64,000 nucleotides of DNA. Origin: Eubacterium sp. (GTDB lineage Bacteria; Bacillota; Clostridia; Lachnospirales; Lachnospiraceae). The notes beneath the pieces are model-generated. The model ran no database searches and had not been told where the DNA came from. It saw nothing but the letters and a program-made list of their open reading frames with translations. The position numbers and the translations under genes were made by a program. Shown piece by piece: positions 42,447 through 61,373 of this stretch (position 1 is the first letter of the stretch; each line of letters starts with the position of its first letter). The stretch is taken from the NCBI GenBank assembly GCA_024696635.1, contig JAILGP010000002.1, positions 1,276 to 65,275 on the forward strand, read 5' to 3'.

Positions 42447-42830
42447 GTGACAATGGAGATTCATCAGTCTGCAGAGGATTATCTTGAGGCTATACTAATG
42501 ATTAAGGAAAAAAAAGGTTATGTAAGGTCTATAGATATAGCAAATCAGTTGGAGGTTTCAAAACCAAGTGTAAGCTATGCAACTAAGAGGCTTCGCGAAA
42601 ATGGATATATATCATTTAATGAAGATGGAATGATATCACTTACAGAATCTGGTTTTGAGATTGCAGACAAGATTTATACAAGACATAAGGTTCTGACTTC
42701 TATATTTAAAAAACTTGGGGTTGATGATAATATTGCAGCAGAAGACGCATGTAAGATTGAACATGATTTGGATCCTCAGACATTTGATGCTATACGTAAG
42801 TATGCTAAAGAGCATGGTCTTTGTGAATAA
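42447..42830 (+). CDS. DtxR/MntR-family metal-dependent transcriptional regulator (short form, no FeoA domain)
   Basis: SAEDYLEAI, VRSIDIA..LEVSKPSV, RHKVL, AAEDACKIEH. Confidence 0.92.
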   Translation: MTMEIHQSAEDYLEAILMIKEKKGYVRSIDIANQLEVSKPSVSYATKRLRENGYISFNEDGMISLTESGFEIADKIYTRHKVLTSIFKKLGVDDNIAAEDACKIEHDLDPQTFDAIRKYAKEHGLCE

Positions 42831-42930: not shown

Positions 42931-42972
42931 AAAAGACGTTTCCAGTTTGAATGGAAGCGTCTTTCTTTTTGT
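42931..42972. terminator. Bidirectional terminator between the regulator and the virD4-like gene
   Basis: aaaagacgtttcca-gtttgaa-tggaagcgtcttt-cttttt. Confidence 0.8.
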
Positions 42973-42978
42973 TAAAGG

Positions 42979-44367
42979 TTAAATGGCATCCTGCCTGAAG
43001 TAATCAGGTGTATATTTTTCGACCTTTATACCACCCTTGGTATTGCCGGATTCAAATACATATGCTGTATTTAGTGCCATATTAAGTACGTTGTAATATG
43101 GGATATTTAATTTTTCGCCTATATATTTTGCAGTCTCAACCTCTGGAGTTCCAAGGAAGAGCATGTGGTCGCAGTTAGCCATAATAGTGTTGGATTCGTA
43201 GGTTGTATAATTTTCGTTCAGCTGTGATACAGACTGAAGTATAATGCTGACGCTGATTTCACGGGATCTTATTACAGAAATAAGCTTAGAAAAATTAGGA
43301 ATAACTGTGTTGGTTGCAAAATCATCCAGTATGAATCTTACAGGAACCTTCAGTCTATGGTCTGGAAGGGAATCCGCATAATTAATAATCTTATTCATGG
43401 CCTGGGAATAGAATATATTTACTATTTTGTCACTGGATCTGTCACTGTCGCTGACATTGAGGAAAAGTGCTATTTTTTCTTTTCCGAGATCCGTAAAATC
43501 AAAATCGCTTTTAGAGCTATATATATAACGGGACTCCTTGATATCAAAACCTACAATGGAAGTTGCTACAACTATCATGATGCAGGAATAGGTTTTTTCT
43601 GCCTGGGATACTGTCTTAAACAATTTGTATCTTGTAACCGCGAAGCTGTTTGGAGATTCCGATTCCAGTTCATCAAAAATCGAATCTGTGAATTTGCTAT
43701 TGGAACATTCAGAAATTAATTCTATAAGTTTTTCAGGAGTATGATCACTATCTGGTGTTGCTTCAAGAAGAAAAGAAATAAGAGCAGTAAGGAATATCTG
43801 AGCGCTTCTTGGCCAGAAGGGATCTTTTTCATCAGGCTTAACAGGACAGAGATTTTCTGCTATAGTGGAAATATCCTGATTGTTATAGGTATTTGTTTCT
43901 TTGTCGTAAGTGATAAAGTCAAAGGGATTATAATGATTGGAATTGGTTCTTCCCATAAAATCAATTTTTAAAACCTTGTAGCCGGCTTGTTTAAGTTCAT
44001 TGGCATGTCTGTCATATAGGCAGTTCTTTGTATCGGAAATAATCATGCTGCCGCATTTCTGGGATATAAGTGGGTCCACATAACCGGTGGTCTTGCCTCG
44101 TCCTGAAGCGCCGATTATAAGGTCATTATTATTAAGACCTGTTATATGTGAATTGTTATTAACAAAGAAATCCTTTGCCAGCATACGGTATTCCGGACTG
44201 CTCATATTGGGTTTGGAGTTGCTTTCTAGAATCTTATCAAGGGGCTTTGTTTTTTTGCTTTGAACTTTTGGGGTTCTTGACTTTGTTTCCTTATTCTGAA
44301 CTTTTGGGGTTCTTGACTTTGTTTCCTGGCCCTTTGTTTTTTGGGGTGTTGAAGTATTAGTATTCAT
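42979..44367 (-). CDS. VirD4/TraG-like type IV coupling ATPase lacking N-terminal TM anchor
   Basis: TGLNNN.LIIGASGRGKT (Walker A), ISDTK, YNPFD, DPFW, PVRFILDDF (Walker B-like), IRSREISVSIILQS, IMANCD. Confidence 0.85.
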   Translation of the reverse strand: MNTNTSTPQKTKGQETKSRTPKVQNKETKSRTPKVQSKKTKPLDKILESNSKPNMSSPEYRMLAKDFFVNNNSHITGLNNNDLIIGASGRGKTTGYVDPLISQKCGSMIISDTKNCLYDRHANELKQAGYKVLKIDFMGRTNSNHYNPFDFITYDKETNTYNNQDISTIAENLCPVKPDEKDPFWPRSAQIFLTALISFLLEATPDSDHTPEKLIELISECSNSKFTDSIFDELESESPNSFAVTRYKLFKTVSQAEKTYSCIMIVVATSIVGFDIKESRYIYSSKSDFDFTDLGKEKIALFLNVSDSDRSSDKIVNIFYSQAMNKIINYADSLPDHRLKVPVRFILDDFATNTVIPNFSKLISVIRSREISVSIILQSVSQLNENYTTYESNTIMANCDHMLFLGTPEVETAKYIGEKLNIPYYNVLNMALNTAYVFESGNTKGGIKVEKYTPDYFRQDAI

Positions 44368-44442
44368 AGTTTTATACCTTTCTTACATAAATTATTAAGC
44401 TTTATTGATATTTGTTTTGAGGTAAACCTAAATTATATGCAT

Positions 44443-45024
44443 TTAGAACTCGGTGATTATTTCTGTCGCCAGACCGAATTCCAGTGCTTCCTCTGCATTG
44501 AAATATGAGTCTCCCTTGGTTTTGGAGTAAACAGTGCGAAGGGGTTTTCCAGTTCTTTCAGCTATTATTCTGGCCAGTTCTTCTCTGGTTTTCATGAGAT
44601 TTTCTAAAGTATCCTGAACCGCCAGAGCCTTTGACGGTGTATTTCCAAGGGTAACAGATGGATCATGAATCATAATCTGGGAATGCTTTGTCATACATCT
44701 TTTATCTCCTGCCAAAAAAATGATGGATCCCATGCTGGCTGCAATTCCTATACAGACTGTTTTTACGGGAGACTTTGCCATTCGGATAATGTCATAGAAA
44801 ACAAGACCTGAGGTAACTTCTCCGCCGGGTGAGGTGATATAGAGTGTTATCTCTTTGCCTGGGTCAATACGGTCCAGGTACATAAAACGTTTAATCATTT
44901 CCGACATGGTTTCACTGTCTACACCGTCAGAAAGAACTAACTCTCTGTTAGAAAACATATAATCATCAACTGAATAAATCTGTTTTCCGCTATTTGTTGT
45001 TTCAAGAATATTAACTGGTTTCAT
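44443..45024 (-). CDS. ClpP-family serine peptidase (non-housekeeping paralogue)
   Basis: LYITSPGG, GIAASMGS (Ser), IMIHDP (His), GDSYF (Asp), AEEALEFGL; AAGGAG RBS. Confidence 0.9.
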   Translation of the reverse strand: MKPVNILETTNSGKQIYSVDDYMFSNRELVLSDGVDSETMSEMIKRFMYLDRIDPGKEITLYITSPGGEVTSGLVFYDIIRMAKSPVKTVCIGIAASMGSIIFLAGDKRCMTKHSQIMIHDPSVTLGNTPSKALAVQDTLENLMKTREELARIIAERTGKPLRTVYSKTKGDSYFNAEEALEFGLATEIITEF

Positions 45025-46003
45025 ACTTTTCTCTCCTTAAATAAGTAATATGTATATTTTTATCTAAGCTTTTTATTTTATCCTCGCTAAGCATGGGGAT
45101 TACACCGATGATAAAGACCAATCTTTTTATGTATATGCATTCATCGGATGGGGAAAGCTTGTTTGGGATCTGATTTGGGATCTGATTTGGAATCTGATTT
45201 AGAACTTCTTTATCCATATATTTACGTAGATCTTTTTTTTCTGTTTCGATAAAGTTCTTAATATATTTATCATTATTGTATAAATCCTTAGGCCAATTAT
45301 CCGATCTATTATATAAGAAGAAATCAATGTAGCTTATTGCCTCGGCTAAAGTGATATTATCAGAGGTATTATCAAAGCTTTTATCAGTTAGGTTCTCAAA
45401 ATAATAGGTTTGGAGTATTTTTATAAATATGTTAATGCCATTAATTTCTGATTCATAAAAAAATAGGGCATCTGGGGTTTTTTTATCAAGATATTTAAGT
45501 ATCTGATCAAAACTTGTGTTCATTATCCTTTGGAGGCAGAAGGTGTATTTTCTTAATAAATATATTTTTTCAAATGTTTTGTTAGGAATAATAGAAGCTG
45601 AATTTTTTCCTGCCTTAAAACTTGCAGCTTTCTTTATTTTATTTTTTTGAATTATACTATCCAGACTTTGGGGTAAATTATTATTGATAAAACTATTTGG
45701 CTGCTTTTTTTTCATGTTATTCTGTTCAGCTTTTTGAATGTTGGCTATATATTTACTGATGAAGTAAATGATTTTGCTTATTTCATTAAAATTATCATCC
45801 AGCCAATTGTTTGTAATAAGGTCATTCAGCGATTTATCCCAACTTGGAATATCAGATGGATTTTTAAGTAGGATACTTAAATTATAATCTGTAATTTCAT
45901 TAAAATATTTATCAAGTACCGGCGGTCTGCTTATTTTGTTAGAGTGATAGTTGGTGATTATTTCATCCAGACTGATGGGGGTCGCCGTGTTATAAGTACT
46001 CAT
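45011..46003 (-). CDS. Hypothetical protein (Asn/Lys/Ile-rich), overlapping the clpP-like gene by 14 nt
   Basis: 330-codon ORF with AGGAGG RBS; no motif recognised. Confidence 0.7.
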   Translation of the reverse strand: MSTYNTATPISLDEIITNYHSNKISRPPVLDKYFNEITDYNLSILLKNPSDIPSWDKSLNDLITNNWLDDNFNEISKIIYFISKYIANIQKAEQNNMKKKQPNSFINNNLPQSLDSIIQKNKIKKAASFKAGKNSASIIPNKTFEKIYLLRKYTFCLQRIMNTSFDQILKYLDKKTPDALFFYESEINGINIFIKILQTYYFENLTDKSFDNTSDNITLAEAISYIDFFLYNRSDNWPKDLYNNDKYIKNFIETEKKDLRKYMDKEVLNQIPNQIPNQIPNKLSPSDECIYIKRLVFIIGVIPMLSEDKIKSLDKNIHITYLRREKYETS

Positions 46004-46319
46004 ATCAGTGTCCTCCTATTTTATAAGAAAATAGTTTTATTTTTTGACTATGGCTAAAACCAAAACATATTTGAATGTCTACATATTATTTAGCTCAAAA
46101 AAATATAAAAAAAAGTGTCCTGGTAGTTTAAAAATATTTATGGATGGTAATTTTTTTCTGGGATTATTATTGAAAGTGGTTAGGTGTAAATATATAATTT
46201 TGTTTATGGGGTTATAAGTGAAATATATTTGTTGCGCTTTTGTTATTAGCCTTAGTATAAAATGTGCATCAATATGAATAAGTAAAAAAAAGAAATTTAA
46301 ATTCTTATGGGAGGGTATT

Positions 46320-49300
46320 ATGCCAAAGAAAAAACATAGCCGTGAGGAAAAAGCAGACTACAAGAAAAAAATGTCCCAGTTTATTCTTTTTAGTGATCAT
46401 AAATATGATGAAATCACTTCCATCTATGGCCCTAATGGTAAATTGGAAGATATGTATGGAAAAGAAAATAAAGATAAATATGATGGGATAGAAATTAATG
46501 TACCAAATAATATGGATATAAATGAGTGTACTGGTATTATTTTGGGAGCTATGATTGATCCTAATGGTTTAGATGCAGATAATATATCTATGGGGAATAA
46601 ACTATCTAAAAATGAAAAAATTGAAGGGCATCAGATGCTGATAATTGAAAATATCAATTCTGATAATAACCCTAATAGGACAAAAAATGTAGTTCCACTT
46701 TTGATTGAAAGAAAGAAGGTGGCCAGTAAAGCAATAAATTATTTTTCCAGAACTGGAAAAAATGTGGGGGTAAGTCCACTTGCTAAAAATATGGTTGATC
46801 ATGGAAGCGGTCTGGCAACTTCATGTATTCCATTTAATCCAAGGAATTCATTTTCTAAAAATTTGTTTAGTAAAAGGAATATGTCTATATACCTGGCTAA
46901 TCATGTGTATGGAAAAAAATTTGGAACATTAATGGATGAAAATAAGAAGATACAATATAAGAAACTTATTAACGTAAAAAAACAGATGGATGCAGCCGAA
47001 AAAGCTGGAAGAATTAAGGCGGAGCTTCTAAATTCTAATAATATTATTCCGGGTTCAAAAGATAGAAAGAGGCTTGTTGAAGAATTGATGTTTAATCAAC
47101 TTCTGGCTGCTACATCATGTGCTGCAATGGAAGAAATTAATAAGAAAGATAGTAATCTGCTTGACTCTATATTAAAGAAACATGGTATTACTGGCTCTAA
47201 CTTTGAAAACAATGAGTATGACGGAGACTATCGAAAACTTAATAATAATAATGAGTATAGTGTTGCTGAAAGAGAATTGAAGGAAACTATATTAGCTGCA
47301 TATCGAGAAAATACCATTACTGATATAGAAGCAATTTTGTCAGATGAAAATGGTATTGAAAAGTTAAAAAATGCTTATAAGAAGGCAATTGAAGGATCTT
47401 CCTTATATAAGGAAATGGTTAATGCTTCCAATGAAGATTTATTAGACTTAGTTATGAACTTTGATAATGAATCAAGAAAAGGACTCAATATGTTTGAGGG
47501 CGTTGATTTAAAAAATGCTGCTGAACCATATAATAATGAAAAAAAGTCTACTTTAGAATCCATAATTAAGAAAGAAACGGAAAAGATTTCTGAAGCTATA
47601 GTTAATGCTAATGTTGAATTAAATGGAGAAGAATGTGGAATTGATGATTTTGGTAATCAACAATTTATAAATAATGCATTAATAATTAATGATCTATATG
47701 ACGATTTGGATAATCTTACAGGAATTAGAGGAAGTGGACAGAATTTTAAGGATTTACAAAAGAGTCTTGGAAACTTCAAAGATTATACAAATATGTTAAA
47801 GGATACAGAGGCGGGTAATAGTTTTACAAAACAGCAATATGATGAATATATAAGACGAGGAAAAGAAGTCTTAAGGCTTACGGATAAGTATCTTGATAAT
47901 AAAGTTATAAACAGTGATTATGCTCAGACAAGATTTAATGGAGTAGCTGACTTTAAGAGGAAGTTTGCGACAAATCTTAAGATGTTTGAGAATACTTATA
48001 CTGGGTTATCGGCAAATCAAAAAGAAGCAATTGATGATTATAATAAAAAATTAGAAGAAAAATGTGATGATGCTTATAAGCAAATTGATTACTATAGAGT
48101 GCATAGAAAACCGTATGATCCTTTTACGAAGGGTAAGAATCCTCCTGGAACCCAAATTAATTCTCCGGAAGGATATTCGGTCACTAGAAATGCTGTCTAT
48201 TCTATAGCAATCATGGCTTTAGCTGCACAAAATAAAGACCCGAATAAACCGCATTATACACTTGAAGAAATTATGAATCCTAATAAGCTGGGAAAAGAAA
48301 AGGCTGAAATGTATGATAAAGCAGTGGAATGTGTAACAAACAATACTGCGGAAAATCAGAAGTGGATAGCTGAGAATATTTATAATGGCTTATTTGAGGT
48401 AGGTAAGATTGTAAATACAGAAGCTGGAAAAATTGATTTTAATAATCCGGCTTATAAAGATAGTAAGCTTTTTAATATGATTTCTTCCATTAGTTATTAT
48501 CAGTTTGATGCATGGCAGGAGCTGGCACATTGTAAAAATGAGACAGTAGCTATAGTTAAAGAAAATAATAAAAATATAGAAATTAATGATTATGATGATG
48601 CAAAACATTTTCTTTCTGGTCAGACTTCATATTTTGATGAATTTGGATCGGTTGGATTAAATAAGTTTATTTATTTAAATAAATATTTTAAAAATGGTGA
48701 TACTGCGAAATTAGGTGAATGTCTGGATAGTCTAGTGGCTCAGAGGGCTTATGAGAAAATAAATAAGGATGCCATTGAAAAAGGGGGAGACTTTAATGGA
48801 TATCTGAATGTGAAGCAAAAAGAAAAATTAGCAACTTTTGTTCATTCTAAAATGGCTGCTTTCTTTAAAGATTTAAAGAATATAGATAACAGCCCTGAAG
48901 TTAAAGATAAGATTTATAGAAAGATAGCAGACGAATCCATCGTAAAGAATATGACTCTTACGCTGGATCTGGATAATCCTGATGAGAGCAAGATTATAAG
49001 AGTAAAGGGTATTCCTAGTCTGGAGGATATAAAAGAGGAAATTGAATTTGAAAAAATCCCTGAAAAGATGGTGGCTGATTCTTTCGAAGAAAGAATTAGT
49101 AAATATGAAAAACTAAGTAATAAGGCTGAAAGGTCAGAGCAAAACAAAGGATATATGAAAGATGCTTTCGATGCTTGTAAGAAATTGCAGTCCTTGACTA
49201 AAGGTAATGAAGCTATAAGTAATGATAAGAAGAATGAAGCTATAGAATGTATCAATAAGATTATAAAGGCTGAATATATTGATATTCTTGAAAAGTCTGG

Positions 49301-49919
49301 TCTTAAAGGCCGGGATCTGGATGAATCGCTTGATGATGTAGCTAAAGAGTTTAGAGATATGCGTAACAGGGATTATATAGATAAGGCTACATTATTTAAA
49401 TATGGTGGCAGCAATTTTGTAGAGAATATTGTTACCATGAAAAAAGATAATATAGTTAAATATGCAAAAGCTCAGCTAAACAATAAAGAGTTTAAAGCTC
49501 TGGTTCAAAGAGCGGAGAATGATTTGAAGGCTAATAATTACGGAAGTAATAAGAAAAAATTTATTAAAGATGCAGTTTTGGTTATGACTAAGAAGATGAA
49601 TGACTATACTGGTCTTGGCTTTACAAAGGGTAACAAGAATTATGGTGATCTTATGGAAAGTGCAAATCTTTCGCTTCAGGATAAGAGATTTCTTGAGTTT
49701 ATTAAGAATGAAAAAAATCCTGAAAGAGCTATGACAGCTTCTGAATTTCTTGATTGGGTAAATAATGAGGAAAATGTAAAAAAATTTGTTAATGATTATA
49801 ATAAGAAATCTCATGAGATGATTGAACAGAAGAAGGCGGCTGCAGAAGCTAAGAAGAATAGTAAAAAGACTGATAAGAAGACTAATAATAAGAAGGAAGA
49901 GAAAAAGATAAAAAAATAA
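46320..49919 (+). CDS. Large hypothetical protein (1199 aa), no signal peptide or TM, Lys-rich C-terminal tail
   Basis: Long uninterrupted ORF with GGGAGG RBS and downstream terminator; no family recognised. Confidence 0.85.
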   Translation: MPKKKHSREEKADYKKKMSQFILFSDHKYDEITSIYGPNGKLEDMYGKENKDKYDGIEINVPNNMDINECTGIILGAMIDPNGLDADNISMGNKLSKNEKIEGHQMLIIENINSDNNPNRTKNVVPLLIERKKVASKAINYFSRTGKNVGVSPLAKNMVDHGSGLATSCIPFNPRNSFSKNLFSKRNMSIYLANHVYGKKFGTLMDENKKIQYKKLINVKKQMDAAEKAGRIKAELLNSNNIIPGSKDRKRLVEELMFNQLLAATSCAAMEEINKKDSNLLDSILKKHGITGSNFENNEYDGDYRKLNNNNEYSVAERELKETILAAYRENTITDIEAILSDENGIEKLKNAYKKAIEGSSLYKEMVNASNEDLLDLVMNFDNESRKGLNMFEGVDLKNAAEPYNNEKKSTLESIIKKETEKISEAIVNANVELNGEECGIDDFGNQQFINNALIINDLYDDLDNLTGIRGSGQNFKDLQKSLGNFKDYTNMLKDTEAGNSFTKQQYDEYIRRGKEVLRLTDKYLDNKVINSDYAQTRFNGVADFKRKFATNLKMFENTYTGLSANQKEAIDDYNKKLEEKCDDAYKQIDYYRVHRKPYDPFTKGKNPPGTQINSPEGYSVTRNAVYSIAIMALAAQNKDPNKPHYTLEEIMNPNKLGKEKAEMYDKAVECVTNNTAENQKWIAENIYNGLFEVGKIVNTEAGKIDFNNPAYKDSKLFNMISSISYYQFDAWQELAHCKNETVAIVKENNKNIEINDYDDAKHFLSGQTSYFDEFGSVGLNKFIYLNKYFKNGDTAKLGECLDSLVAQRAYEKINKDAIEKGGDFNGYLNVKQKEKLATFVHSKMAAFFKDLKNIDNSPEVKDKIYRKIADESIVKNMTLTLDLDNPDESKIIRVKGIPSLEDIKEEIEFEKIPEKMVADSFEERISKYEKLSNKAERSEQNKGYMKDAFDACKKLQSLTKGNEAISNDKKNEAIECINKIIKAEYIDILEKSGLKGRDLDESLDDVAKEFRDMRNRDYIDKATLFKYGGSNFVENIVTMKKDNIVKYAKAQLNNKEFKALVQRAENDLKANNYGSNKKKFIKDAVLVMTKKMNDYTGLGFTKGNKNYGDLMESANLSLQDKRFLEFIKNEKNPERAMTASEFLDWVNNEENVKKFVNDYNKKSHEMIEQKKAAAEAKKNSKKTDKKTNNKKEEKKIKK

Positions 49920-49969: not shown

Positions 49970-50006
49970 GGATGTCCTTCCTTTGGGGAGGGCATCCCTT
50001 ATTTGT
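49970..50006 (+). terminator. Terminator after the large hypothetical gene
   Basis: ggatgtccttcc-tttg-gggagggcatcc-cttattt. Confidence 0.7.
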
Positions 50007-58511: not shown

Positions 58512-61373
58512 ATGGAGAAGAACAATGTAGTATTTGAGAATAATGGCAGAAACATAACTATGAAATATCAGCTTACACCTTCAGAGGCTTTAGATGATAT
58601 GGTACTGGATAGACTGAAAGCTAATTATTTAGAGGCGGTTGGTCCGGTTCAGTATAGCGAGAATGCAGGTGACAGGGTGATTTATTCTCATATTCCTGTT
58701 TCTGTATCTTTTGCGTCATTTGCAAGAAAAGCACTTACAAAAGCTCAGGTTCTAACTATTCTCAAGAATCTTATTTCTGGAATGGATATAGGAAAATTTG
58801 GTATTCCTGTAAGCTATATTCTCAAGGATAAAGACTGCATTTATATTGATGAAAATACACTCGGAATCTACTATTTTGTTGTTCCGGTAAAGGATAATGG
58901 TAAAGCAGGCGTTATTGATGTCAATGAAACTCAGGAGTTCTTTAGATCTCTTGTAGCAGGCCTGAAATTTGATGAGTCAGATAAAGATAACTATGTGGCA
59001 AGAATCTTGACTGCTATTAACTCTGATAGATTTTCAACTGGAGAGCTTAATATTCTTGTGAATGAAATGCTTGTTGACTTGGGAGATGAGCAACTGGCAT
59101 CTGTTAATCAATCAACAGCTAAGGTTGATAAGCTTGGTGTTATGAGAAATAGAACTGCAATGGGCCAGCCAATGCAGCAGGGAATGCCACAGGGTCCGAT
59201 GGGACAGCCAATGCCACAGGGCTCAATGGGACAGCCAATGCAGCAGGGACGCCCAATGAATCAGCCACAGGGAATGCCACAAGGCTCAATGGGCCAGCCG
59301 ATGCAGCAGGGACGCCCAATGAATCAGCCACAGGGAATGCCACAAGGCTCAATGGGACAGCCGATGCCACAGGGACGCCCAATGAATCAGCCACAGGGAA
59401 TGCCACAAGGTCCAATGGGACAGCCAATGCCACAGGGACGCCCAATGAATCAGCCACAGGGAATGCCACAAGGCCCAATGGGACAGCCAATGCCACAGGG
59501 ACGCCCGATGAATCAGCCACAGGGAATGCCACAAGGTCCAATGGGACAGCCAATTCAGCAGGGACGCCCGATGAATCAGCAGCAGGGAATGCCGCAAGGT
59601 CCAATGGGAATGCCACAAGGTTCAATGGGACAGCCACAGGGGCCAGCTAAAAGGTTTGATCCAATGACAGGAAAACCTATAGAGGAAAAACCTGAAGAAA
59701 AATTAGAGGAAAAGATAGAAAACAAAATAGAAGATAAAACAGAAGATAAAACAGAAGATAAAATAGCTGCTACTGCTGAAGAGATAAAGGCAGAGGAGCC
59801 AGCAGAAGAAGCAAAGGCAGAGGAGCCAGCAGAAGAGATAAAGGCAGAAGAGCCAGCAGAAGAAGCGAAGGCAGAAGAACCAGCAGAAGAAGCAAAGGCA
59901 GAGGAGCCAGCAGAAGAAGCAAAGGCAGAAGAATTAGTTGATAAAAAAGGAACAGAAGATACATCATCTGTTGAAAAAAATATAAATGGTCAGCTTCCTA
60001 ATGGACCTATGAGCACAGGGCATCCAATGGGACAGCCACAGGCGCCACGGGGACCGCAGGGAACGCCGATGGGTCAGCCTCAGGGACCAGCAAAGAAATT
60101 TGATCCAATGACTGGAAAGCCAATAGAAGAAAATAAGGTTCAGCCAGGACCAATGGGACCTATGGGAACAGGACATCCAATGGGACAGCCTCAGGGACCA
60201 CAGGGAATGCCAATGGGTCAGCCTCAGGGAATGCCGATGGGTCAGCCCCAGGGACCAGCAAAGAAATTTGATCCAATGACTGGAAAGCCAATAGAAGAAA
60301 ATAAGGTTCAGCCAGGACCAATGGGACCTATGAGCACAGGACATCCAATGGGACAGCCTCAGGGACCACAGGGAATGCCAATGGGACAGCCTCAGGCACC
60401 GCAAGGAATGCCACAGGGAATGCCAAAAGCACCACAGGGACCACAGGGACCAGCAAAGAAATTTGATCCAATGACTGGAAAGCCAATAGAAGAAAATAAA
60501 GTTCAGCCATGACCGATGGGACCTATGAGCACAGGACATCCAATGGGACAACCACAGGCACCACAGGGAATGCCAATGGGACAGCCTCAGGCACCGCAAG
60601 GAATGCCACAGGGAATGCCAAAAGCACCACAGGGACAACAGGGTCAGCCACAGGGACCAGCAAAGAAATTTGATCCAATGACTGGAAAGCCAATAGAAGA
60701 AAATAAAGTTCAGCCAGGACCAATGGGACCTATGAGCGCAGGACATCCAATGGGACAGCCACAGACACCGCAAGGAATGCCACAGGGAATGCCAAAAGCA
60801 CCACAGGGAATGCCACAGGGACCACAGGGAATGCCGCAGGGTCCAATAAAGAAATTTGATCCAATGACTGGCAAGGCTATAGAAGAAAATAAAGATCAGG
60901 ACATTGTGAAGGCTCCGGAAGCATCAAAGGATGCTGGAAAGGCGCCGGAAGATACAAATTCTCCTGAGAATTCAAAACAGGATGATATGTTCTCAATAGA
61001 TGATTTAATGAAAATGGGAGAAGAGGGCAGTGAATCAGATAATCCTGTTGTTGATGTTAAGAAACCTCGTCCTCATTTTGTCAGAGTAAAGACTGGGGAA
61101 AAGATTTTTATAGAAAAAGATGAGTTTAAGATAGGAAAATCTAAGCTTCATTCTGATTATGCTATAGAAAATAATTCAGCAATAAGCCGTGTACATGTAA
61201 TTATAATACGTAGAAATGGAATAAATTATCTGAAAGATAATGCTTCTACAAATGGAACATATGTTGAGGGCGAAAGACTTGAACCGGGAAGAGAAGTACT
61301 TCTTCGCGATAATATGCATATTAAGTTTGGAGATGAGGACTTTACATTTCTCCTTAGGGAAGGAAATAACTAA
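58512..61373 (+). pseudogene. DUF6382-like / Pro-Gln-Gly-Met repeat / FHA protein interrupted by one in-frame TGA at 60510-60512
   Basis: ORFs 58473-60512 and 60516-61373 are in the same frame; sister repeats have GGA at the TGA position; FHA motif FKIGK...ISRVH...LKDNASTNGT in the distal part. Confidence 0.75.
59160..60895 (+). repeat. Nested coding repeats: 60-bp QGRPMNQPQGMPQGPMGQPM, 27-bp AEEPAEEAK, and larger units containing KKFDPMTGKPIEE
   Basis: Read directly from sequence and translation. Confidence 0.9.

Follow-up and report, generated by a model that had tools for sequence, protein, structure and literature searches.

The 64,000-nt stretch of contig JAILGP010000002.1 analysed here (the window) comes from the chromosome of a rumen or gut member of the Lachnospiraceae and carries, at 42979-46003, one copy of an accessory cassette that is conserved and patchy in its distribution among gut and rumen Clostridia. 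It brings together small proteins of a family that we name SD, a ClpP-type peptidase, and a soluble ATPase related to the coupling protein VirD4, here called D4s. This combination is distinct from conjugation machinery. The three-gene cassette is apparently both widespread and undescribed; a search of the full-text literature found no paper on a pairing of ClpP with a VirD4-like protein, and the two words are mentioned together only in unrelated contexts. We tentatively propose, at somewhat less than an even chance, that the cassette is a conflict-related proteolysis module in which D4s would act as a sensor or recruiter, SD as an adaptor or regulator, and ClpP as the peptidase of a ClpX-type unfoldase. 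An earlier note on this DNA had singled out the locus as a candidate system that included a neighbouring gene for a 1199-aa protein, and had offered three hypotheses for it: delivery of the 1199-aa protein to a secretion channel, a new ATPase-peptidase pair, and a protease-based defence module. Our analysis bears on each of these.

Linkage of ClpP and D4s across Clostridia

One genome per species was scanned, and 265 stretches were found to encode a D4s relative; locus counts given here rest on the best 79 loci, which come from Lachnospiraceae, Oscillospiraceae and other Clostridia and hold 86 copies of the ATPase gene. In tblastn searches, ClpP is encoded immediately upstream of 57 of these copies, immediately downstream of 2, and within 4 kb of 18 more, so that it is adjacent or at most 4 kb away in 77 of 86. 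We did not find ClpP near the remaining 9 copies, one of which has too little upstream sequence to judge. Adjacency at this frequency is far beyond chance. Moreover, pairwise distances of ClpP and D4s co-vary in adjacent pairs, with a Spearman rho of 0.69 against a permutation maximum of 0.25 (n = 300). Closer to the window, six congeners among 40 relatives have D4s orthologues (41-52% identical, ~430-450 aa), and a ClpP paralogue lies directly beside D4s in all six. The earlier note had made its proposal depend on a conserved VirD4-ClpP linkage that is not a decayed fragment of an ICE (integrative and conjugative element), and these counts bear out that linkage.

Decay is nonetheless what the databases might suggest. 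Annotation pipelines give named D4s clusters a conjugation label ('VirD4-like conjugal transfer protein, CD1115 family'), and the gene in the window could on that basis be taken for the pseudogene of a truncated coupling protein, left by an ICE or conjugative plasmid beside a chance ClpP. We give this explanation next to no credence. The protein collection holds at least 1824 intact clusters (at 90% identity) of D4s proteins at E≤1e-60, uniform in length at ~400-470 aa, and the ATPases form a monophyletic clade with invariant signature residues, conserved nucleotide-binding motifs, and conserved ClpP and SD partners.

The closest congener carries a cassette at the same site, in the order MATE exporter gene, genes for 106-aa and ~325-aa hypothetical proteins, ClpP, D4s, and DtxR-type repressor gene. 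Its GTDB genome and two independent metagenome assemblies support this layout. Flanking genes of the two species are 69% to 93% identical. Between MATE (80%) and DtxR (92%), identity is 92% for ClpP, 68% for D4s, and ~27-31% for hyp330, the product of the first gene of the window operon. This gradient may reflect quick turnover of putative specificity parts around a conserved catalytic part, as is typical of conflict systems.

D4s is patchy in its distribution, with matches in 10 of 300 genera of the host family and in 7 of 25 genomes of the genus, the window genome included. Some genomes have multiple copies: one congener has two cassettes, and another combines one cassette with an additional accessory ClpP. 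Cultured carriers include Lachnospiraceae bacterium NE2001, Roseburia sp. 499 and Scatolibacter rhodanostii.

The soluble ATPase D4s

D4s is encoded at 42979-44367 on the minus strand and, by family matches and alignment, is a soluble P-loop ATPase of 462 aa derived from the VirD4-type type IV coupling proteins (T4CPs). It matches PF02534 (6e-42, 144 bits), PF10412 (62 bits) and PF12696, and scores 275 bits against NCBIfam NF045973 ('VirD4-like, CD1115 family'), above the 250-bit cut-off; the VirD4-like identity proposed in the earlier note is therefore secure, as is that of ClpP through PF00574. The protein has a Walker A motif (GASGRGKT), an RSR arginine motif, a variable all-alpha region, and a Walker B motif, ILDD, in which Asp349 replaces the catalytic Glu.

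We compared 81 soluble proteins with 12 canonical coupling proteins from the same genome set. The soluble ATPases form the monophyletic clade mentioned above, with a median length of 435 aa against 675 aa for canonical T4CPs. They lack the N-terminal transmembrane (TM) anchor, as hydropathy over 19-residue spans ahead of Walker A peaks at no more than 1.36 in 81 of 81 (canonical median 2.2), and they also lack the C-terminal extension of canonical T4CPs. Walker B reads DD in 81 of 81 clade members and DE in 11 of 12 canonical proteins. The clade keeps Walker A, the RSR motif and the majority of core positions, and has a handful of clade-specific residues in addition. The conservation profile places the variable parts in the region equivalent to the all-alpha domain and in a basic N-terminal tail. 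In the window protein this tail (residues 1-60, 44188-44367) is basic, predicted to be disordered, and hypervariable between orthologues. It contains a tandem 12-residue repeat, ETKSRTPKVQ[NS]K, in two copies.

In P-loop ATPases of the ASCE class, the residue that follows the Walker B aspartate is the catalytic base. With a second Asp in this position, D4s is probably a slow, switch-like ATPase and not a processive motor.

The accessory ClpP and its partners

The second gene of the operon (44443-45024, minus strand) encodes a full-length accessory ClpP paralogue of 193 aa, which matches PF00574 at 5e-48 (164 bits) and has an intact Ser97/His120/Asp172 triad. In an alignment of 57 cassette ClpPs and one housekeeping reference, the triad residues are conserved in 58, 57 and 54 of the 58 sequences. 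Cassette ClpP is ~35% identical to the housekeeping ClpP of congeners and falls below equivalog cut-offs (TIGR00493, 132 against a cut-off of 309); its N-terminal region is canonical and of the cellular type. In the congeners, housekeeping ClpP scores 283-291 bits and is encoded directly upstream of clpX in 5 of 6 copies, whereas accessory ClpPs score 165-202 bits. Cassette ClpP is a paralogue of the housekeeping enzyme, and its sequence indicates that it is catalytically intact.

Taken at face value, the assembly makes cassette ClpP the only ClpP of the window genome. This is true of the assembly, and we reject it as biology: the contig breaks off at clpX, just upstream of which congeners carry clpP, so the count is an assembly artefact and the housekeeping clpP is probably unassembled. 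The clpX open reading frame (ORF; contig C142, 11295-12932) runs open to the contig end, and the N-terminal region that it encodes is unusually long, with many Asn, Asp and Glu residues. The assembly lacks the housekeeping clpP that would be expected just upstream of it.

The closest variants of the cassette encode an AAA+ protein of their own. Their gene order is a 1130-aa phrog_8308 protein, a ~330-aa ClpX-like AAA+ protein, a ~300-aa unknown, ClpP, D4s, a ~310-aa unknown, and two SD proteins. The ClpX-like protein matches AAA_2 and ClpB_D2-small and, read by eye, has an 'IFGF' loop where ClpX has IGF. It is ~90 N-terminal residues shorter than ClpX, and its length and domain hits suggest that it lacks the zinc-binding domain. 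The gene is found only in these closest variants, and is absent from the window cassette and from most others. The ~1130-aa protein encoded upstream of it (L046:4370-7762; also in L043 and L045) matches phrog_8308 at E=8e-85 and has the motif 'GGADFDSD', which may resemble the catalytic DxDGD loop found in RNA polymerases of the double-psi-barrel type such as YonO.

These observations allow the second hypothesis of the earlier note, a new ATPase-peptidase pair, to be weighed. In such a pair, a D4s hexamer would dock on the ClpP tetradecamer and thread substrates into it, with a motor of the FtsK/HerA class in place of an AAA+ motor. Tight linkage and co-diversification of the two genes favour this model, as does the lack of a cassette AAA+ gene in most cases, including the window. 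The general view that unfolded relaxase is translocated by coupling proteins also counts in favour of the pair. At ClpP position 82, cassette forms have Ala, Met or Leu where the housekeeping form has an aromatic residue; this position is a putative part of the docking pocket for the IGF-type loops of AAA+ partners, and we treat the difference only as a lead. On the other hand, ClpP is full length and retains both the canonical N-terminal region and Tyr62. The invariant replacement of the catalytic Glu argues against a processive motor, and we found no IGF-like ClpP-docking motif specific to the D4s clade, as the conserved [FY]LGG is also present in canonical T4CPs. Finally, a ClpX-like gene with an IGF-type loop inside the nearest cassettes implies that ClpP still needs an AAA+ partner. 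The pair is a possible arrangement that the Glu-to-Asp change and the ClpX-like gene weaken, and we consider it distinctly improbable.

The SD family and hyp330

Small proteins encoded just upstream of ClpP merge into one superfamily, SD, in iterative hidden Markov model (HMM) searches. The superfamily comprises 88 proteins in 60 of 80 loci, encoded directly beside ClpP and D4s, often as a tandem pair and sometimes downstream of D4s. SD is an all-helical domain of ~115 aa with the consensus M-x(2-4)-[KR]-I-[PS]-L-x-x-R-L...G...P-E-Y. A profile search of 1.84 billion representatives returned 329 members at E≤1e-3, nearly all of which stand alone at 105-125 aa; no domain fusion was found, as Pfam gave no domain in ten longer members.

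In the window, the first gene of the operon (45011-46003, minus strand) encodes hyp330, a 330-aa protein that matches nothing in Pfam, NCBIfam, PHROGs or PADLOC. Its N-terminus reads ISLDEIITNYHSNKISRP..., and its ~100 N-terminal residues (45704-46003) are SD-like. In a phmmer search, hyp330 aligns with the 106-aa ORF of the closest congener (1e-11), which in turn matches SD profiles at 2e-10 and 3e-6. An AlphaFold2 (AF2) model places residues 1-100 in a five-helix domain (predicted local distance difference test score, pLDDT, ~80), followed by a low-confidence helical extension with pLDDT below 50. The fold had no match in Foldseek or in a profile search of the PDB. The congener has separate 106-aa and ~325-aa genes, and hyp330 seems to represent their fusion or contraction.

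Proposed function and genomic neighbours

The D4s ring descends from Gram-positive type IV coupling proteins and has lost their membrane anchor and C-terminal tail; we propose that it would serve as a nucleotide-gated sensor or recruiter and not as a fast motor. Its variable all-alpha domain and tail may recognise a DNA or protein ligand, as coupling proteins recognise transferred DNA and relaxase-like clients. The rapidly evolving SD protein could be an adaptor, a regulator or a client. The proteolytic step would fall to cassette ClpP and an AAA+ unfoldase of the ClpX type, for which the nearest relatives have a gene inside the cassette. The biological role would most likely be conflict with mobile DNA, that is, defence or exclusion. 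The third hypothesis of the earlier note, a protease-based defence module, is a possible one.

A bolder version can be envisioned, in which the nucleotide-gated DD ring represents a new, non-AAA+ class of ClpP partner that binds invading DNA, such as DNA arriving by conjugation, or the pilot protein of that DNA and, with the SD adaptor, opens or feeds its dedicated ClpP. We regard this version as a long shot. If true, it would describe a DNA-triggered proteolytic immune machine without a described counterpart.

The neighbours of the cassette in other genomes are mixed. The closest variants also lie beside a transposase. In other variants, the operon or its surroundings include DnaB_C-like ATPases, frequently as a pair, and some encode RNase H directly downstream or a RecQ-like helicase. 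In the complete genome of Roseburia sp. 499 (L198, CP135164.1:2808347-2829600), an AbiEii/DUF6088 (AbiE-type) pair and a gene for a DnaB_C-like ATPase lie directly upstream of the cassette. To survey neighbours more broadly, we listed in a census of 36 loci the two genes closest to the cassette on either flank, which gave 142 proteins and 105 Pfam families. PADLOC run on the census returned scattered Cas6/Cas8, WYL, Wadjet JetC, type III restriction-modification, CARF-HEPN, DolA (Dodola) and PbeA. Such defence neighbours, and the AbiE pair, speak for the conflict-related module. We also compared seven cassette contexts with precomputed Pfam annotation. Three have purely housekeeping flanks (the closest congener, NE2001, and one beside the dcw cell-division cluster), two have a DnaB_C-like neighbour, one is the Roseburia sp. 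499 locus with its AbiE pair, and relaxase and mating-pair-formation genes are present in none of the seven.

Several points weigh against the conflict-related proteolysis module. No toxic effector is evident in the cassette core. In the window, which has no cassette ClpX-like gene, the unfoldase would be the housekeeping ClpX, and this is an assumption. Defence genes make up ~8% of the 142 nearest neighbours, a modest raw share without a control set, and the same census contains DnaB_C (8 of 142), RNase H (5), RepL (3), and DEAD and ResIII helicases (2 each). One of the seven annotated contexts lies in an element with a D5-type primase, large serine recombinases and a RelB/ParE pair. The proposed slowing of hydrolysis in D4s rests on general P-loop enzymology, and the only relative of D4s in the PDB by sequence is Cag5 (E=6e-6). 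Lastly, the placement of the hyp330 N-terminus as a divergent SD member is weak when examined directly and depends on the intermediate sequence of the congener: residues 3-108 match the iterated SD HMM at E=0.006, hhalign of hyp330 against SD gives E=2.7e-4 with a probability of 42%, and a profile built from SD library representatives had no match to hyp330.

Given replication-type neighbours and a recombinase-bearing element, a role for a mobile element fits as well as a role against one. The module could be cargo of mobilisable or integrated plasmid-like elements that assists their DNA replication, establishment or anti-defence, for example by degrading host defence or repressor proteins on entry, and the window copy could be a stranded, vertically inherited remnant. 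Recurrent replication-type partners, namely the DnaB_C-like ATPases, RNase H, RepL and RecQ/DEAD helicases, together with DUF5688 (3 of 142 census proteins), are consistent with this possibility. So are the locus between a D5-type primase and large serine recombinases, the position of the closest variants behind the phrog_8308 protein and beside a transposase, and the patchy distribution with several copies in some genomes. However, the window and two further species have housekeeping flanks, with no recombinase, relaxase or replication gene nearby and with synteny across species. The D4s clade was not found in IMG/VR viral contigs, identity does not exceed ~36% in its matches from phage and plasmid collections, and integrase, relaxase and type IV secretion system (T4SS) families are absent from the 25 most frequent of the 105 census families. 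We consider service to a mobile element unlikely, and less likely than the conflict-related module that we favour.

The locus in the window

An ORF check recovered all four ORFs exactly where the earlier note had placed them, with three minus-strand genes divergent from the 1199-aa ORF, and the overlap, gap, Shine-Dalgarno sites and hairpins were likewise located as it had described. The hyp330 and ClpP genes overlap by 14 nt (45011-45024), and 75 bp (44368-44442) separate the ClpP and ATPase genes. Shine-Dalgarno sequences precede all four starts: AGGAGG for hyp330, AAGGAG for ClpP, GAAAGG for the ATPase, and GGAGGG for the 1199-aa gene. At the 3' end of the cassette operon, a terminator-like hairpin (42932-42964, no strand assigned; 13-bp stem followed by a T-run) lies between the ATPase gene and the convergent DtxR-type repressor gene. 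The divergent intergenic region of 316 bp (46004-46319) contains back-to-back promoter-like sites, TTGAAA-17-TATAAT on the plus strand (46170-46198) and TTTACA-16-AATAAT on the minus strand (46190-46163); both come from a consensus scan only, in which the total number of sites was no higher than in shuffled sequence.

The earlier note had also reported lower GC in the unknown genes. This holds for hyp330 and the 1199-aa gene, as GC is 0.29-0.32 over 45-50 kb against ~0.34-0.40 in the flanks, and does not extend to the ClpP and ATPase genes, at 0.36-0.39. Elsewhere in the window, positions 59001-61000 have unusually high GC (0.49-0.51) and an extreme AT skew (0.46-0.48) relative to the remainder.

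By Pfam, the flanking genes encode a DtxR-type repressor, a MacB/FtsX ABC transporter, a MATE exporter and a glycoside hydrolase of family GH3. As the earlier note had stated, integrase, relaxase, VirB4/T4SS and phage structural families are absent among the flanking window genes tested. The MATE and DtxR genes form the boundaries of the island. In more distant congeners, FeoA/FeoB, a small Cys-rich protein and an HD-domain protein are encoded between the DtxR and MATE genes, and there is no cassette. The content of the site thus differs among congeners, which marks it as a variable spot in the genus. On another contig of the same genome (C156, 14-24 kb) are a canonical 680-aa, TM-anchored coupling protein with Walker B DE and a 1561-aa ORF that matches VirB4-like AAA_10. 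An ordinary ICE-like element is therefore also present in the genome, unlinked to the cassette.

The gene for the DtxR/MntR-type repressor (window 42447-42830) abuts the cassette in three species, namely that of the window, the closest congener and strain NE2001. This arrangement raises the question of whether the cassette performs housekeeping or regulatory proteolysis tied to an adjacent metal regulon. We think this very unlikely: the DtxR and cassette genes are convergent with a terminator between them, other congeners have DtxR with Feo-type iron transporter genes and no cassette, and most cassettes elsewhere have no DtxR neighbour.

The 1199-aa neighbour

The gene for the 1199-aa all-helical protein (46320-49919, plus strand) is adjacent to the cassette and lies outside it. 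A terminator-like hairpin follows it at 49970-49997 (plus strand; 12-bp stem with 7 GC pairs, then a T-run). The protein has no match in Pfam, NCBIfam, PHROGs or PADLOC, and the same is true of five homologues and of its own paralogue. A word-indexed protein search with it returned only itself, and the family has no match in phage, plasmid or viral collections. Its AF2 model is all-helical and of low confidence (mean pLDDT 50), and a Foldseek search with this model gave nothing at E≤0.001.

We considered the 1199-aa protein as a component of the cassette and rejected it on synteny and distribution. The earlier note had treated the large orphan protein as a member of the system, yet our neighbourhood survey found no co-occurrence: none of the 79 cassette loci encodes a homologue, and the 1197-aa neighbour of the NE2001 cassette is unrelated. 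The gene is also absent from the syntenic cassette site of the closest congener, where, in all three assemblies, 0.3 kb separate MATE from the first cassette gene. Homologues occur in 26 of 64 genomes of the genus, with up to six matches per genome in open frames of ~1000-3000 aa, and lie on other contigs where the cassette of the same genome is known. A paralogue in the window genome (contig C69, 5586-9095), 24.5% identical, is isolated amid transporter genes. Of 200 other genera in the host family, a single one has a match. We conclude that the 1199-aa gene is a bystander; it belongs to a multicopy family whose members have 1000-3000 aa and are almost confined to the genus. Conserved motifs of the family (the window gene, the C69 paralogue and loci L173-L194) include GGSQNFKDM, PENQKWIAE and FDAWQE..HCK, and some members occur in tandem arrays or are internally duplicated in ORFs of 2000 aa and longer.

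With the 1199-aa protein outside the system, the first hypothesis of the earlier note loses its basis. It envisaged recruitment and processing by the ATPase and ClpP, after which the protein would pass to a type IV channel encoded in trans. The divergent arrangement with a common 316-bp control region, the low GC of both hyp330 and the 1199-aa gene, and the ICE-like contig with its 680-aa T4CP and VirB4-like ORF are compatible with such a route. Nevertheless, the gene is unlinked to the cassette on the evidence just given, and D4s is without the TM anchor by which coupling proteins are tethered to the channel. We judge this hypothesis highly improbable.

Implications and comparison with known systems

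The cassette repurposes a DNA- and protein-translocating coupling ATPase to work beside a private ClpP. Thousands of proteins of gut and rumen Clostridia that are labelled 'conjugal transfer protein VirD4' are a signature of this cassette and not conjugation proteins, and recognition of the D4s clade would set right those predictions of conjugation and of ICEs in which these genes are counted. The function of the cassette could reveal a new mode of regulated proteolysis, or a new system of conflict with mobile DNA, in a major group of gut and rumen bacteria.

Among known defence systems, the cassette proteins have no convincing match in PADLOC-DB 2.0, with nothing for ClpP, hyp330 or the 1199-aa protein. 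D4s weakly matches mad8 of the MADS system (E=1e-5), and no other MADS genes are present. ATPase-plus-protease anti-phage pairs such as IetAS probably follow a similar general logic, with a P-loop ATPase and a protease encoded together in accessory islands; the protease there is subtilisin- or trypsin-like, whereas that of the cassette is ClpP-type. The ClpP fold is also common to phage prohead proteases, and cassette ClpP has strong matches to PHROG head-maturation protease families. Nonetheless, it scores 89.9 against the NCBIfam head-maturation cut-off of 120, has a cellular-type N-terminus, and is encoded with no portal, capsid or terminase gene nearby.

Cassette ClpP resembles the peptidase of ClpXP and ClpCP in its full length, its triad and its N-terminal region, and close variants add a ClpX-like AAA+ protein. 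Unlike that peptidase, it lies outside the tig-clpP-clpX setting, and its partners are a ring ATPase that is not of the AAA+ class and a small domain of a novel kind. D4s, for its part, shares homologous nucleotide-binding and all-alpha domains with the type IV coupling proteins VirD4, TraG and TrwB, and has Walker A, the arginine motif and many core residues in common with them. Coupling proteins have a TM anchor, a C-terminal extension and DE at Walker B; D4s lacks the first two, has DD, and forms its own clade. Coupling proteins are encoded with a relaxase and T4SS, whereas D4s, within the neighbours examined, is linked instead to ClpP and SD.

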